Shown here: one piece after another, positions 1-38,006 of the stretch
How the letters are laid out: the number at the start of each line of letters is the position of its first letter
Position numbering within the stretch: the stretch's first letter is position 1
UHGV virus genome: UHGV-1360403
DNA length: 42,236 nucleotides
Reading direction: 5' to 3' (one strand)
Origin: a virus
Notes under the pieces: model-generated
Database searches by the model: none
The model's input: the letters and a program-made list of their open reading frames with translations, nothing else
Told to the model about the DNA's origin: nothing
Program-made: the position numbers and the translations under genes

Positions 1-644
1 AGTTTGGTCCAGCTCTGCCCCGGAAACTGTATCGAGTTGAACCAGCGTGAGGTAAACGCGCCGTAAGTGCGCCCGAGACGTTGCCCCTGGTCCACAAACC
101 ACGATTGTCCCCACAAATCTACCAGGCCGTTCGGTGCTGGCGTACCGGTGAGATTTATCCAGCGCCGGACATACTTATGCGCCACTTTGCCCAGCGCCGC
201 CGCGCGCTTACCACCACCGCGCAGCCGGAAGGATTTTAGCCGGGTGCTTTCATCTGGAATGACAGTACCGAACGGCCATCGTTCTCCCAATTCTTCAATC
301 AGCCAGACAAGGTTATCGTAGTTGATGGTGAACACGCTTGCGTTGCTGTTCGTCAGCGCCATAGAGCGCGCTTTGGCATTACCAATAATTGGCTGCACCT
401 CGATATTGCGCAAATGTCCCCACTTCAGTGCTTCATCCGGCCATGTGCTGGCAGCCACGCGCAGCGGCGCGAGGACCAGTGCGGGGCATGTTTCTGCCCC
501 TGCCATAAAGAGATCTTCCAGCGCAGTGAGCGTTGCCACGGTTTTACCCATTCCCATCCCCGCCCAGATGTTGCCGCGCAGGGTTTCGGTTTCGTGGTTG
601 ATAATGAGAACTTGGTAGGGGCGAGGTATATATTTTGGGGGCAT
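1..644 (-). CDS. SNF2-family helicase, N-terminal part (continues at 41486..42236 across the window junction)
   Basis: ATG at 644..642; hand translation MPPKYIPRPYQVLIINHETETLRGNIWAGMGMGKTVATL... with Walker A GMGMGKT, DExx-like IPDES and LTGTP motifs; open to position 1 with no stop. Confidence 0.85.
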   Translation of the reverse strand, partial: MPPKYIPRPYQVLIINHETETLRGNIWAGMGMGKTVATLTALEDLFMAGAETCPALVLAPLRVAASTWPDEALKWGHLRNIEVQPIIGNAKARSMALTNSNASVFTINYDNLVWLIEELGERWPFGTVIPDESTRLKSFRLRGGGKRAAALGKVAHKYVRRWINLTGTPAPNGLVDLWGQSWFVDQGQRLGRTYGAFTSRWFNSIQFPGQSWTK

Positions 645-706
645 ATAATATGGCTCCTAAACAACAAAAGGCCAATTTAGACCTTTTGTTGTTTTAAAAA
701 TGTTAT

Positions 707-1624
707 TTATAATAGTGCTGTTACTATTGCATCTTTAAAAATATTTTCTTCTTCATTTATTAAAGGTGATGACAGATGAATAATTACTTCTTTTCCTGTC
801 AATACTATTTGCTCGACTTGAAATCCTGCGTTGTGTAGTCTTTGGCGTAACTTTTCTAGTGCTGATTTTGATATACTAAATCCTTCACTCCTTATAGTAT
901 AACTGGCAACTCCATTTTTAATAATATCTACAGAGTTGTCAATTTCCTGCTGCGAGTAATTTTTCGGTGAGTCGAAAAATCTGGATTTTGTCGTTGCTGT
1001 TGCCCTAAGAGATATCAATAATGATTTGATATCTTTAATCTCAGATGCCAGATACTCAGTTTCTGATACTTCTTTCTGGTCTAGTTGTGCAACTTTGAAA
1101 GTGCCAAAATGTTTGAGGAATGTTGTGTATTCAGGATCAGTTACTGACTTTAAATATGTTTCTTTTATCTTGCTCGCAAGTCTTTCTTTGAATAAATTGA
1201 TTGATTGGTATCTTAAATCCGAAGGGTACTCTAAATGTTCAATTGATGAAATGTCAAAGCTATAAGGAGTGCGCTCGTCCTTAATAATTACGGTCGGTTT
1301 GTCAAATGCGAGACGCATTCCTAATTCAAACATTACATTAGCGTTTCGAGCACTTATATCGCAAACAACTATGGGGTTTTCATAAAGATTTTGAACAATT
1401 CGTTTTTGTATTACTGCAACATCATCATCTGAACTTACCAAATTTGCCTTGAATCCGGCATCATTTGATGCTTCACAAATAATGTCATGAACATTTCTCC
1501 AATGTCCAGTGGGATAACCTTCTATGTCCGCAATTGGCATAATAATGCCGCATATATGAGGTGGCATATTTTTGTTGTCTTTTACATCATCTTGGTTTAT
1601 TTCTTTCGTTTGTTGCTTAGCCAT
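707..1624 (-). CDS. AT-rich cargo protein (305 aa) with N-terminal TIR-like / nucleoside 2-deoxyribosyltransferase-like Rossmann domain; C-terminal domain unknown
   Basis: Markedly AT-rich relative to flanking genes; motif PIVVCDISARNANVMFELGMRLAFDKPTVII parallels ARQNVVLEMGMLLSSLGRSNVAIL in the 2354..3115 protein. Confidence 0.6.
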   Translation of the reverse strand: MAKQQTKEINQDDVKDNKNMPPHICGIIMPIADIEGYPTGHWRNVHDIICEASNDAGFKANLVSSDDDVAVIQKRIVQNLYENPIVVCDISARNANVMFELGMRLAFDKPTVIIKDERTPYSFDISSIEHLEYPSDLRYQSINLFKERLASKIKETYLKSVTDPEYTTFLKHFGTFKVAQLDQKEVSETEYLASEIKDIKSLLISLRATATTKSRFFDSPKNYSQQEIDNSVDIIKNGVASYTIRSEGFSISKSALEKLRQRLHNAGFQVEQIVLTGKEVIIHLSSPLINEEENIFKDAIVTALL

Positions 1625-1639
1625 AGCTTACACAGACTC

Positions 1640-1924
1640 CTATTGTAATTTTTTGCCTAATATACATGAAAGCTCCTTACTATCCAGTACTACCACGGTA
1701 AAGCCCAGTTTTCGCAGACGTTCATGCTCGCGCAACTGATCAGGTCGTGGTGGTTTGCCTGGTGCTTTGCATTCGACAAAGACGATGCGACCGCCGGGTA
1801 GCAGAACAATGCGATCTGGTACCGAGCGGAGACCGGGAGATACGAACTTAAAGGCAACCCCGCCAGCCTTTTTTACTTCAGCGACGAGGTGCTTTTCGAT
1901 TAGGTTTTCACGTTCATAGGCCAT
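1640..1924 (-). CDS. VRR-NUC domain nuclease
   Basis: 94 aa; AFKFVSPGLRSVPDRIVLLPGGRIVFVECKAPGK pattern typical of VRR-NUC (PD-(D/E)xK) phage proteins. Confidence 0.75.
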   Translation of the reverse strand: MAYERENLIEKHLVAEVKKAGGVAFKFVSPGLRSVPDRIVLLPGGRIVFVECKAPGKPPRPDQLREHERLRKLGFTVVVLDSKELSCILGKKLQ

Positions 1925-2118
1925 TAGCTTTCGCCTTCCTGCTTTTTGCGTTTCTTCATGCAGATAGCGCAGTTCTCAGGATGGTCATGCCATTCGTCAA
2001 TCCTGATACCTGTGAACATCCATTTTCCGCATAGTGATATGGCTTCCCCCGAATTAAAGAAATGTGCTTTTTTCGACAGGGCGGGGAACCCCCAACCTTT
2101 ATTATCGATATTAGACAT
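1924..2118 (-). CDS. Small Cys-containing hypothetical protein (64 aa)
   Basis: ORF ends where VRR-NUC gene starts; C..C/H..C..C spacing suggests a small zinc-binding protein. Confidence 0.45.
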   Translation of the reverse strand: MSNIDNKGWGFPALSKKAHFFNSGEAISLCGKWMFTGIRIDEWHDHPENCAICMKKRKKQEGES

Positions 2119-2290
2119 CGTCCACCTCCTTACGCTTTTCGCGCATGTTCTGCATCAGACAAAAATCAAACCGACGTTCGCTTTGGCCCAGACCTGCATC
2201 GCCCGGTCGTACCCGCTGGACTGTTCAAGGCGCAAAGCCTCCCGTGCAGTCCGGTAATAAAGCGGACTGTCCCGGTATTTAAATGACATA

Positions 2291-2353: not shown

Positions 2354-3115
2354 TTACGAGGAAGCGTTAGCTATTTGAGCTTGTGTAAATTCGAAACCAG
2401 AATTTTGTAACCGTTGCACTAGACGAGGAACTGTTTCACGTACATGGTCGTTGAAATTCAGATACAAAATCCCGTTAGCATCAGAAGGCTGTTCTAGGTG
2501 CTGTTTCTGAAGGATTGCTACATTGCTGCGCCCTAAGGACGAAAGAAGCATACCCATCTCGAGTACAACGTTCTGTCTTGCGCGGGGTTGGATTTCTGCT
2601 TCACCGGCGCGCTTTGAGTATCCCATATCATCAGGTGTCAAAAGAACAATCCCGAAACGAGTAGCAGTTTGTCCTTGCCCAATTTCACGTTCAAGCTCTT
2701 CAATAATGGTGAGTCCAGTCCCTCCCGTATTCTGCAAAATGAAATGGTCTGGTAATCCAAGTTTATGAAGGATTAGCTCAAGTTGTTCCTTTGCAGTATG
2801 GTCATGGCCGTGAACAATGAATATCTTTTTGGGAAGCTCAGATGGCTGTTCTACGGCTAGTGGTGTTGCCGTGGGGGGCGTTCCTAAATGGGACATTATT
2901 GCAGTTTCAACATTGGGACGTTCTTGAGGGTTCCCTTGAAACTGAATGGTCCGGGTGGTGTAAAGGTTAACAATTACGCCATTCGTTAAACGATAGCAGT
3001 CATAAGTCTCACGCTGTTCGTGGGAAAAATTGGTGAACCCACACTCCCTCAAAAAGTCAGGAAAAGATTCTCTCGGGTATGGATAGTTGATCGGCATTTC
3101 AGTTAGTTCCTGCAT
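2354..3115 (-). CDS. TIR-like domain protein (253 aa): novel ~100-aa N-terminal domain plus C-terminal TIR-like nucleotide-binding domain
   Basis: KIFIVHGHD...GIVLLTPDDMG...ARQNVVLEMGMLLSSLGRSNVAIL matches the 'predicted nucleotide-binding protein containing TIR-like domain' pattern; own terminator downstream; lower G+C than PolA by eye. Confidence 0.65.
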   Translation of the reverse strand: MQELTEMPINYPYPRESFPDFLRECGFTNFSHEQRETYDCYRLTNGVIVNLYTTRTIQFQGNPQERPNVETAIMSHLGTPPTATPLAVEQPSELPKKIFIVHGHDHTAKEQLELILHKLGLPDHFILQNTGGTGLTIIEELEREIGQGQTATRFGIVLLTPDDMGYSKRAGEAEIQPRARQNVVLEMGMLLSSLGRSNVAILQKQHLEQPSDANGILYLNFNDHVRETVPRLVQRLQNSGFEFTQAQIANASS

Positions 3116-5289: not shown

Positions 5290-5919
5290 ATGCATATGAT
5301 CCAATACTTGATTGACCATACAGAGCATCTGGAGAAAATAGCTGGATATATTTTTTCATGTTTGATTGTTATGGGAGTCTGGATAAGAAAGATCATTTTT
5401 AATTATAAGTATAAAGAGCCTAAATATGTCAAGAAGTTAATTTTATATTTAATTAAGTATGAACGTTATCTGGATAAGGAGGATAAGAAAGCCATAGAAA
5501 AAAGAATAAATGATAAAATTATTCGTGATGCGCTGAAATTGCAATCCTCTTATAACCGAAGAGATGTTATTTACATTTGCAATAGATTAGAAAAAAGACA
5601 GTATATAAATCAGTTGATTAAGCTTCAGAATTATATAGAGAAAGATAACGGAGTGTTTTTTATTAATGTTGATTTTTCAGGTTTTTTATTTATTATTAGT
5701 CGTCTGTTTTCCTTTCTGTGTTTTGTGCTGTTTACCCTTTTTTCTATTATCTGCATTATTTCCATAGGGCAAAATGAAGGCCTTTTAAATTATCTTGTGT
5801 ATATGGTTATGATAATAGTTTTAGAGACTGTTGGTTTTTGGATGTATGATACTTTCCCGTCTAAGAAAAAGATCTGTGAACTAAATAAAGAATTGAGAAA
5901 GATTAAGATTCCTGAGTGA
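5290..5919 (+). CDS. AT-rich Lys-rich membrane protein (209 aa, about 3 predicted TM helices), opposite strand to the replication operon
   Basis: Very AT-rich ORF; hydrophobic stretches IAGYIFSCLIVMGVWI, FLFIISRLFSFLCFVLFTLFSIICIISI, LVYMVMIIVLETVGFWMY. Confidence 0.6.
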   Translation: MHMIQYLIDHTEHLEKIAGYIFSCLIVMGVWIRKIIFNYKYKEPKYVKKLILYLIKYERYLDKEDKKAIEKRINDKIIRDALKLQSSYNRRDVIYICNRLEKRQYINQLIKLQNYIEKDNGVFFINVDFSGFLFIISRLFSFLCFVLFTLFSIICIISIGQNEGLLNYLVYMVMIIVLETVGFWMYDTFPSKKKICELNKELRKIKIPE

Positions 5920-36259: not shown

Positions 36260-36852
36260 TGACCCCAATTTTTGATGAAAATGGACTGGCTACAGTGCCG
36301 GGCGATATGCGTTGTTTTTATTATGATGCTGAAACATCTGAGTATACGGGCTGGTCTGATGAATATATTAATACTGGCGTAAGTATGCCCGCCTGTTCCA
36401 CTGGAATTAACCCTGGCGAAAACATTCCGGGAAAAGTGGCTGTATTTACAGGTAAGGGATGGAGCCATGAAGAGGACCATCGCAATGAGACTGTTTACTC
36501 AATCGAAAATGGCGCAGCTGTTACAGTGGATTATATCGGTGCCATCAAAGATGGTTATGTCACGCTTTCACCGTTAACGCCATACGATAAATGGGATGGT
36601 GAGAAATGGGTGACGGATACCGAGGCACAGCATAGCGCCGCAGTAGACGCGTCAGAAGCACAGCGCCAGTCACTGATTGATGCAGCAATGGCTTCCATTA
36701 GTCTGATTCAGCTGAAATTACAAGCCGGGCGGAAACTGACGCAGGCAGAAACAACCCGGCTTAACGCTGTGCTGGATTACATTGACGCGGTGACGGCAAC
36801 AGATACCAGCACCGCGCCGGATGTCATCTGGCCTGAACTGCCGGAGGCGTAG
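36256..36852 (+). CDS. Tail fibre assembly protein (Tfa/U-like)
   Basis: C-terminal ...[26 protein letters not shown] is a typical Tfa signature. Confidence 0.75.
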
Positions 36853-37264
36853 GCCATTCAATATCTGGCGCACCGGAAGTATCGACCAGTTCCAGTGCGT
36901 CCAGATAATCCAGCCACAAATTATATTGCACCAGTTCCTCACCTTTCAGGCGACCAATCGCCGCTTTACCAGGCCATTGCTTACTGTTTATGTATTCGTT
37001 GACCTGATTAATCAATTGCTGCTTTTTCAGTTCGGCTGCGGCAATTTGTTCCTCATGAGTTGGCGGTGGAATATCAATCCATGCAGGCATTCCGTCGATG
37101 ACACCTCTGTATTTTCCTTCTGGTGCTTCCTTCATAAATTCGGCAGCAACAGTGTCGTCAATTTCGATTCCATCATCGGGCCATTCGCCGGATTCCTGAT
37201 AAGCGATTTTAAGCTCCACAGGGAAAAACGCATTTTTATCGGCACTGAAAATATATTTCTGCAT
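36824..37264 (-). CDS. Alternative tail fibre assembly protein (U'-like), inverted orientation
   Basis: C-terminal ...[29 protein letters not shown]; convergent with and overlapping the plus-strand Tfa. Confidence 0.7.
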   Translation of the reverse strand: MQKYIFSADKNAFFPVELKIAYQESGEWPDDGIEIDDTVAAEFMKEAPEGKYRGVIDGMPAWIDIPPPTHEEQIAAAELKKQQLINQVNEYINSKQWPGKAAIGRLKGEELVQYNLWLDYLDALELVDTSGAPDIEWPTPPAVQAR

Positions 37265-37266
37265 TT

Positions 37267-37625
37267 CTACCGTCCTATCGAAATATAACTGAATCTGTAT
37301 TGCTGTGAGATATCACTGGTTGCCACACGCCACGCTGAATTACTGATATGTTCAAAATTTACAGACAAAACCTGCGGGGCAGGATTCGACGGGTCTGACT
37401 GAACGGCATCAGACATAACACTGACTGAAATCATCGGCTGATTAGGGAATGGTATAGGGAAGTGTCCACTGATAAAGCGGGTCGTGTTTCCTGAAAAAGT
37501 GCCAAACTGAACAATATATCCACCTGGTAGCCTGAACCATCCCGAACCAGAAGCGAATGCTCCCATATCCGGTATCTGATTATCTCCTGTGCCCACATTC
37601 CGTTTTGCCGCTTCTCCCAAACCAA
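37267..37625 (-). CDS. Alternative tail-fibre C-terminal cassette (Sv'-like), expressed only after inversion
   Basis: Minus-strand ORF reads ...INVGLGEAAKRNVGTGDNQ... through the right inverted repeat, sharing GLGE with the fibre at the crossover; the upstream ATG (37665) is probably fortuitous. Confidence 0.55.
37611..37625. repeat. Right inverted repeat of the invertible tail-fibre segment
   Basis: CTTCTCCCAAACCAA, reverse complement of 35802-35816; flanks agree at 5 of 7 further positions. Confidence 0.7.
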
Positions 37626-37691
37626 CGTTTATGAAAATGCAGAAATAACGAGCAAATGGCATCATTCCTGCTTTTGTCAGAGGGATCCACT

Positions 37692-38006
37692 ATGCTTATT
37701 GGCTATGTACGTGTGTCAACAAATGACCAGAACACAGATCTACAACGTAATGCGCTGAACTGTGCAGGATGCGAGCTGTTTTTTGAAGACAAGATAAGCG
37801 GTACAAAGTCCGAAAGGCCGGGACTGAAAAAACTGCTCAGGACATTATCGGCAGGTGACACTCTGGTTGTCTGGAAGCTGGATCGGCTGGGGCGCAGTGT
37901 GCGGCATCTTGTCGTGCTGGTGGAGGAGTTGTGCGAACAAGGTGTTAATTTTAGTAGTTATGTTATTACAGGTGGGGGATTTCTCCCCCTTATGCAGATT
38001 TTCTAG
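37692..38006 (+). pseudogene. Serine DNA invertase (Gin/Hin/Pin/Cin family), 3'-truncated
   Basis: MLIGYVRVSTNDQNTDLQRNAL...DTLVVWKLDRLGRS...GVNF matches the catalytic domain of Gin-type invertases; similarity stops near 37952 and the ORF ends after an unrelated 17-aa tail; no C-terminal HTH. Confidence 0.75.
37974..37989. repeat. Short GC hairpin at the junction between the invertase remnant and the low-GC island
   Basis: GGGGGA-TTTC-TCCCCC. Confidence 0.4.

Follow-up and report, generated by a model that had tools for sequence, protein, structure and literature searches.

In the BcTir/Tpr system of Bacillus cereus, the N-terminal 'MilB-like glycosidase' domain of BcTpr depletes NAD+ and makes an isomer of cyclic ADP-ribose (cADPR), and the substitution N82A or E86A abolishes both NAD+ depletion and isomer formation (10.1101/2023.05.26.542521). 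ThsI, the effector of type VIII Thoeris, has been described as a 'CMP hydrolase + TPR' protein that is switched on by canonical cADPR (10.64898/2025.12.03.692087). The single-gene defences Swarozyc and Evangelion, built on a TIR-like NADase domain (DUF4062), combine a conserved core, a helical stalk and a divergent domain called AUX; binding of the phage portal by AUX turns on NADase activity in Swarozyc. Here we compare with these systems a cargo gene at positions 707..1624 (minus strand) of UHGV virus genome UHGV-1360403. The window, that is, the whole stretch of DNA analysed (42,236 nucleotides), is an Escherichia coli prophage. We put at about even the chance that this gene is a prophage-borne anti-phage defence acting as one polypeptide, which would unite an enzyme core, a stalk and a variable sensor.

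The coding sequence starts with ATG and encodes 305 amino acids, annotated as 'hypothetical protein' (RefSeq WP_001551510.1, GenBank URC09077.1); residues 84-114 read PIVVCDISARNANVMFELGMRLAFDKPTVII. It is a real gene, because 4,466 homologues were retrieved at E≤1e-3 (90% database) and 9,508 clusters at 50% identity. None of the libraries searched characterises the family, for which Pfam, NCBIfam and PADLOC v2 have no model, and literature searches on the protein accession, the phage name or PDC-S35, the PADLOC family of a neighbouring gene, found nothing.

A link to characterised effectors came from tblastn searches of plasmids, where the same domain makes up the N-terminal ~190 amino acids of distant proteins of ~400 amino acids. 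The C-terminal half of these relatives matches Pfam TPR-S (PF20308) at residues ~190-310 (1e-17 to 1e-19), and one or two small TIR genes lie alongside. Examples were found on Acinetobacter plasmids, on IncP enterobacterial plasmids and in Lacticaseibacillus. The N-terminal domain (N-domain) of the cargo protein matches the Acinetobacter TPR-S protein by BLASTP (8e-15) and the Lacticaseibacillus one by hhalign (probability 93%, E 3e-7). The motif positions run in parallel: an I-M pair, an N-x-N motif and a catalytic glutamate stand at I10-M11, N80-P81-N82 and E86 in BcTpr, at I8-M9, N79-P80-N81 and E85 in the Lacticaseibacillus protein, and at I28-M29, N94-A95-N96 and E100 (predicted) in the cargo protein. 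By architecture and motif positions, rather than by direct alignment, the N-domain appears to be the same as the effector domain of BcTpr and ThsI. It is most likely a TIR/deoxyribosyltransferase-like N-glycosidase of the ThsI/BcTprN type, with catalysis predicted from the conserved motif.

Two of the plasmid clusters resemble type VIII Thoeris. One, on an Acinetobacter conjugative plasmid (L024:4591-6806), has the order TIR, TPR-S protein, TIR, and is surrounded by BrnTA, a PIN-like protein and an AlwI-family restriction enzyme; the other, on an IncP enterobacterial plasmid (L106:4013-6305), has two TIR genes after a TPR-S protein. PGAP labels the TPR-S effector 'TRAFs-binding domain-containing protein'.

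Other searches gave matches in the same direction. The PADLOC CBASS 'TIR effector' model PDLC00733 matched the cargo protein at 1.1e-6 and all eight homologues tested, in one register (1e-5 to 1.4e-17), the best score being that of the homologue from the pneumococcal (Streptococcus) phage IPP5. Many members show sub-threshold Pfam matches to nucleoside 2-deoxyribosyltransferases (NDT) and to CAP12 TIR at the same positions. Neither the protein nor the family profile retrieved anything significant when searched against PDB sequences, and distant homologues gave weak BlsM and Rcl matches only; in a Dorea phage homologue, the motif glutamate (yELG) aligns with the glutamate of the CMP (cytidine monophosphate) hydrolase BlsM (vEIG). 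No profile match to TIR_2 or SLOG, and no meaningful NCBIfam match, was found for the cargo protein. Receiver (CheY) and DprA/SLOG (LOG / DprA / YpsA) readings of the domain were rejected because neither had any profile support. An earlier interpretation made from the DNA letters (the sequence-only reading) had proposed a TIR-like Rossmann domain with an NDT/SLOG-type pattern. The Rossmann proposal is upheld by the PDLC00733 matches, the recurrent NDT/CAP12 register and the homology to TPR-S proteins; of the pattern, the NDT half survives through the recurrent matches to PF05014 (Pfam NDT) and the SLOG half does not.

An AlphaFold2 model built with 35 homologues (mean predicted local distance difference test score 73) places a disordered tail at residues 1-22. 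Residues 23-180 (1085..1558, minus strand) form the conserved TIR/NDT-like domain of five-stranded flavodoxin/TIR-like build, a putative N-glycosidase of the ThsI/BcTprN type with five beta-alpha units that span 23-133 (predicted strands at 23-28, 58-62, 85-89, 111-116 and 129-133). A 'stalk' of long helices (139-162 and 188-207) with a conserved YTTFLKHFG segment, residues 139-207 (1004..1210, minus strand), joins the two domains; model confidence is low at 174-183 and 209-219. Residues 226-305 (710..949, minus strand) form a hypervariable small alpha/beta domain, modelled at high confidence as a beta-beta-alpha-beta-beta-alpha unit and described here as putatively ACT/ferredoxin-like, the ACT reference fold being beta-alpha-beta-beta-alpha-beta. 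Mean identity among homologues is 62-71% over residues 24-180 versus 12-14% over residues 226-305, which are therefore effectively unalignable.

The invariant motif of the N-domain is D-I-S-x-x-N-x-N-V-M-F-E-L-G, within which N94, N96, V97, M98, E100, L101 and G102 are invariant in both the 35- and the 54-sequence alignments. Codons N94-G102 (NANVMFELG) occupy 1319..1345 (minus strand), with the GAA codon of the predicted catalytic Glu100 at 1325-1327 and that of N96 at 1337-1339. Further invariant residues, many of them polar, are H41, W42, D89, S91, R104, D108, D116, D124, H130 and Y133. The motif lies in mid-domain, at strand 3 and helix 3 of a domain of ~160 amino acids, and not at the end of the N-terminal half as first supposed; likewise, the variable C-terminal part is ~80-100 amino acids rather than the ~150 first proposed, because the conserved region extends to about residue 200. 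One of the 54 members carries at its C-terminus EAD11 (effector-associated domain 11, 9e-8), an adaptor domain of NTPase-based conflict systems. A B3-like C-terminus seen by eye in member P0186 was dropped, having no Pfam match, and the label 'RNA helicase' given to members P0047, P0057, P0086 and P0100 in NCBI/UniRef is unsupported by sequence.

Matches to the family occur in 364 GTDB species representatives from at least eight phyla, among them Proteobacteria, Bacteroidota, Acidobacteriota, Verrucomicrobiota, Lentisphaerae, Nitrospinota and Bdellovibrionota. We surveyed the neighbourhoods of 80 loci in species-representative genomes drawn from these 364 matches. No recurrent neighbour gene was present in the 80 loci, and the median gap upstream of the family gene was 143 nucleotides. 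Two 'conserved neighbours' produced by clustering were antisense shadow open reading frames (ORFs) inside the conserved N-domain, and one more belonged to the generic ABC ATPase superfamily. The immediate neighbours were heterogeneous and included MADS, PARIS, RmrA, AbiL, NsnB, dCTP deaminase, viperin, SoFic, TIR_2, integrases and transposases. In Vibrio parahaemolyticus a member forms a single-gene superintegron cassette between attC-type repeats. With no recurrent neighbour and a single-gene cassette, the family gene is autonomous.

Phage contexts were also varied. In Streptococcus phage IPP5 and a Latilactobacillus phage the gene runs parallel to the repressor and opposed to the cro/replication (lytic) genes, in a P2-like Pantoea element it is flanked by the CI repressor on one side and the integrase on the other, at gaps of ~10 nucleotides, and in lambdoid prophages it sits in the nin region. 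One member stands at the edge of a satellite-like island, and one metagenomic contig has a member beside TIR-TM (1.6e-120), a PLD nuclease and NsnA, a defence island. Contexts of these kinds are typical of defence cargo. The V. parahaemolyticus array (L008:1-16822) has at least 24 attC-type repeats, and the product of another of its cassettes has a BstA_C domain, BstA being a known family of prophage defence proteins. A Klebsiella lambdoid prophage with a nin-region member encodes, after its lysis genes, an Acb2/Tad1-hairpin protein (L022:14894-15130), the hairpin being that of an anti-CBASS/anti-Thoeris sponge family.

Within the window, the cargo gene has a G+C content (GC) of 0.344, and of 0.26 at third codon positions, versus 0.565 for the helicase part (1-644), 0.491 for the VRR-NUC gene (1640-1924) and 0.541 for the DNA polymerase gene. 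Upstream lies the VRR-NUC nuclease gene (1640..1924, minus strand; PHROG 93 3e-31, Pfam VRR_NUC 0.002), whose stop codon is followed 15 nucleotides later by the cargo start. Downstream lies the 5' part of an SNF2/DEAD helicase gene (1..644, minus strand), which continues beyond the window edge. A terminator-like 15-bp hairpin with a U-rich 3' arm (659..694, minus strand; predicted free energy −20.6 kcal/mol) directly follows the cargo stop codon; it lies within the AT-rich insert, outside the backbone common to related prophages, and precedes the helicase start at 644. A simple terminator scan did not pick up this AT-rich hairpin (659-694).

The first 6.6 kb of the window are 100% identical to phages vB_EcoM-611R5 and vB_EcoM-689R2, and in chromosomes the integrase end of the prophage adjoins yfhL/shoB. 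Related prophages were present in 158 of 5,426 complete E. coli genomes and the cargo gene in 24 of the 158, all 24 copies being at least 99.9% identical. One of them, in E. coli NZ_AP045179.1, is interrupted by IS1. The gene fills an exchangeable slot between the start of the SNF2 helicase gene and the end of the VRR-NUC gene (631..1676), where backbone homology ends at 608/630 and returns at 1677. In other strains the same slot holds a Dcm methyltransferase, Rha and Arc regulators, a DUF6338 protein or opposite-strand genes of unknown function. Atypical composition, presence/absence polymorphism and alternative genes in the slot are the marks of a moron in a hot spot, and the cargo gene is patchy, recently acquired cargo. 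The sequence-only reading had already called it a recent acquisition, far more AT-rich than its helicase and VRR-NUC flanks; the flank identities agree with PHROG and Pfam matches and annotation, and the GC contrast (0.344 against 0.49-0.57), the 24/158 presence, the slot exchange and the backbone break at 608/630-1677 confirm the rest.

A second slot, between the VRR-NUC and DNA polymerase genes, is occupied here by a PDC-S35 TIR gene and elsewhere by genes for an ATP-binding protein, a DUF7446 protein or a DUF4406 protein (DUF4406 is an NDT-clan family). The replication module of this prophage group has two adjacent cargo hot spots, as seen by comparing the window with loci L015 and L016. 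Alternative occupants also include S-adenosylmethionine methyltransferases, a DrmA-like ATP-binding protein and genes of unknown function that have no PADLOC match.

The PDC-S35 gene (2354..3115, minus strand; PADLOC PDC-S35 1.2e-108, Pfam PF10137 2.9e-31) encodes an uncharacterised N-terminal domain and a C-terminal CAP12-type TIR. It was found in 37 complete E. coli genomes versus 24 for the cargo gene, and without the cargo gene in, for example, strain C11. It is separate cargo and not demonstrably part of the same system. The two proteins share the core N-V-x-x-E-x-G-M-x-L (N96..L105 in the cargo protein, N182..L191 in the PDC-S35 protein), nearly all positions of which are invariant in both families (L191 is not listed as invariant). 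Directly compared, they gave marginal scores (BLASTP E 0.04; hhalign 3%, E 0.016, with single-sequence and family profiles). The same alignment pairs HLEYPSD with HLEQPSD, and the likeness, confined to NV..E.GM and HLE.PSD, is broken by an 11-residue insertion. The common motif had been noticed in the sequence-only reading and its core is present in both proteins, conserved among homologues as expected; its 'AR' prefix is offset by one residue (ARNAN against ARQN), and of the alignment between the two, the core and HLE.PSD stand while the scores stay marginal. The two proteins appear to be related at superfamily level only. A clean terminator-like hairpin with a T-run (2313-2331) follows the PDC-S35 gene, and between that gene and a 64-amino-acid ORF RefSeq annotates a frameshifted ANR-family transcriptional regulator pseudogene (~2111-2289, minus strand), a call kept across related prophages.

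We envisage the following course for a defence gene of this kind. The N-domain (~24-180) would act as a TIR/NDT-superfamily N-glycosidase of the ThsI/BcTprN type, with Glu100 as predicted catalytic residue and N94 and N96 predicted to contact ribose or phosphate. In the uninfected cell the enzyme would be kept inactive, presumably by autoinhibition. The hypervariable ACT-like C-terminal domain (226-305) would sense an infection cue, most probably a phage protein, and the signal might be relayed via the helical stalk or via oligomerisation. Once active, the enzyme would break down NAD+ or another nucleotide and thereby halt phage replication, by abortive infection or growth arrest.

Several results weigh against this reading. 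The cargo protein scores 16.2 bits against the CAP12/Pycsar TIR family (Pfam PF10137; gathering threshold 24.7, E 0.011, residues 44-112), with other members at 13.7-16.2 bits, and 13.2 bits against PF05014 (gathering threshold 28.8), for which the best score shown among members is 20.1 bits (E 7e-4), with 5 of 54 members at E≤0.01 and a best E of 1.7e-4. DUF4062 (PF13271) gave no match at E≤1 for the cargo protein and none at E≤0.01 among the 54 members, PADLOC v2 gave no full-length match for it, and Foldseek against PDB returned generic, non-discriminating flavodoxin-like folds only (AzoR and others, template modelling score ~0.27). The indirect character of the BcTpr correspondence belongs here too, as does the finding that BcTpr without its TIR partner gave no protection (10.1101/2023.05.26.542521). 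Conservation of the N-domain is unusually high, which is atypical of immune effectors, and many immediate neighbours in the 80 loci are housekeeping genes. The cargo gene is collinear with the early-left replication operon, 15 nucleotides behind the VRR-NUC gene, and no candidate in a promoter scan at the gene exceeded shuffled controls; its place inside that operon leaves expression in the lysogen uncertain. The weak evidence for the N-domain is nonetheless consistent.

The position in the window suits another role, that of a counter-defence or host-takeover enzyme for lytic growth, which would destroy host immune nucleotide signals (of the cADPR type used in Thoeris/TIR) or remodel NAD+ and nucleotide pools, its variable C-terminus binding host-specific targets. 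The gene is co-directional and nearly contiguous with early replication genes, lambdoid members lie in the lytically transcribed nin region, and a Dcm methyltransferase takes the same slot in related prophages. We hold this role to be unlikely, if worth keeping in view: the family also occurs in a chromosomal integron cassette, in defence islands and beside housekeeping genes outside phages, three unrelated temperate phages carry it at a lysogeny-module position, the characterised proteins most closely related to it act as effectors on the host side, and TIR/DrHyd NADase domains are significantly under-represented in viruses according to a published survey (PMC9503650). The integron cassettes and defence islands also tell against a nucleotide-metabolism enzyme for phage DNA replication, a deoxynucleoside monophosphate/CMP N-hydrolase like MilB, BlsM or Rcl. 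Such an enzyme would not be expected to carry a hypervariable C-domain and a helical stalk; in addition, just 24 of the 158 related prophages have the gene, and nucleotide-modification genes linked to it did not turn up. We rate this explanation as decidedly improbable. The family may also be something other than a plain NAD+-depleting suicide enzyme: its exceptionally conserved core might cleave some other N-glycosidic substrate (a component of the nucleotide pool, a nucleic-acid base or a TIR-derived signalling nucleotide), or might itself make a signal, and in this phage the gene would be expressed with the replication genes. This has, in our estimate, an outside chance; if true, either the effector chemistry would be new, or the protein would modulate Thoeris-type signalling on the side of the phage, with a TIR gene carried alongside.

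That the cargo gene and the PDC-S35 TIR gene lie 730 bp apart in one operon raises the question of whether they form a two-gene, Thoeris-like pair, in which the ACT-like C-domain of the cargo protein, as the effector half, would sense a small molecule made by the TIR. ThsI and BcTpr, the closest relatives, are effectors activated by TIR-made cADPR, and ACT-like folds commonly bind small ligands. Such a pair is nevertheless very unlikely in our judgement, given that the TIR gene is found without the cargo gene (37 versus 24 E. coli genomes), that the 80 genomes have no recurrent neighbour and TIR_2 in 2 of 145 neighbours, that a hypervariable C-domain is a poor fit to sensing a conserved small molecule, and that PADLOC lists PDC-S35 as a single-gene candidate. 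We give slighter credence to a selfish toxin or addiction module, or to a protein of flavodoxin or receiver-like fold that regulates or scaffolds without being a catalyst: no antitoxin-like gene is found repeatedly next to the family gene, and the receiver D-D-K signature is undetected by any profile, the NDT/TIR-type N-x-N-x-x-x-E-L-G being invariant instead.

Two further features of the prophage were recorded. A third AT-rich cargo gene (5290-5919, plus strand; GC 0.287), oriented oppositely, separates the DNA polymerase gene from the DUF2815 gene; its product of 209 amino acids has hydrophobic C-terminal segments and matches PHROG 10579 (7e-107, unknown function) but neither Pfam nor PADLOC. 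At ~36824-38006, in the annotation of ON470588, oppositely oriented tail-fibre and tail-fibre-assembly genes stand beside a DNA invertase gene, an arrangement that suggests an invertible host-range segment.

If the cargo gene is a defence gene, it would define a very large family (~9,500 clusters at 50% identity) that lacks a model in Pfam, NCBIfam and PADLOC v2. The effector domain of type VIII Thoeris and BcTpr would be working with neither a TIR nor a TPR partner, fused to a rapidly diversifying mini-domain, and the principle of a TIR-like core with a variable sensor, known from DUF4062, would extend to a second, independent enzyme lineage. The sensor domains of the family could also serve as a natural library in the search for phage triggers, and the helicase/VRR-NUC junction of this prophage group would be a defence or cargo hot spot.

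Compared with known systems, the cargo protein shares with the CAP12/Pycsar TIR domain (PF10137) the pattern N-V-x-x-E-x-G, here N96-V97-M98-F99-E100-L101-G102, all invariant except F99. It differs in its sub-threshold score, in the 11-residue insertion and in having no CD-NTase or cyclase partner: neither a CD-NTase nor a pyrimidine cyclase lies beside it, its neighbours being VRR-NUC and the SNF2 helicase, and the 80 loci show no recurrent partner. NDT/DrHyd enzymes (NDT, Rcl/DNPH1, MilB, BlsM) have the same fold, as predicted here, and a catalytic glutamate in x-E-[LI]-G after strand 3, but the family stays below the Pfam threshold for them (13-20 versus 28.8 bits). In the retron Ec86 effector an NDT-like lobe is coupled to a second lobe for defence; the cargo protein likewise has an NDT-like part and a second part, without a retron reverse transcriptase or noncoding RNA.

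With BcTpr and ThsI the protein has in common an N-terminal domain of ~180 amino acids and the register I-M ... N-[AP]-N-x-x-[FY]-E-L-G. Those effectors carry a TPR-S (PF20308) sensor, which Pfam detects neither in the cargo protein nor in its family, and have an adjacent TIR (ThsB), whereas no requirement for a TIR partner is evident in the family (TIR_2 in 2 of 145 immediate neighbours). In place of TPR-S, the cargo protein has a helical stalk and a hypervariable, putatively ACT-like domain of ~80 amino acids, and it stands alone on prophages, cassettes and islands. Swarozyc and Evangelion are by analogy the nearest worked example of this layout: they too are single genes on mobile elements, with a TIR-like core, a catalytic glutamate near ~90-100, a stalk and a divergent C-terminal domain, and the same core, stalk and divergent C-domain with no partner emerge here from the AlphaFold2 model, the identity values and the neighbours. 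They form a separate sequence family, with acidic-SYT/QWE motifs against N-x-N-V-M-F-E-L-G, and their C-terminal fold is a helix-turn-helix or winged helix against a putatively ACT-like one. The cargo gene is of an ordinary kind: defence-like cargo that encodes a predicted TIR/NDT-superfamily enzyme and sits in a prophage hot spot; its family appears to share the catalytic domain of type VIII Thoeris/BcTpr effectors in an architecture that is new.

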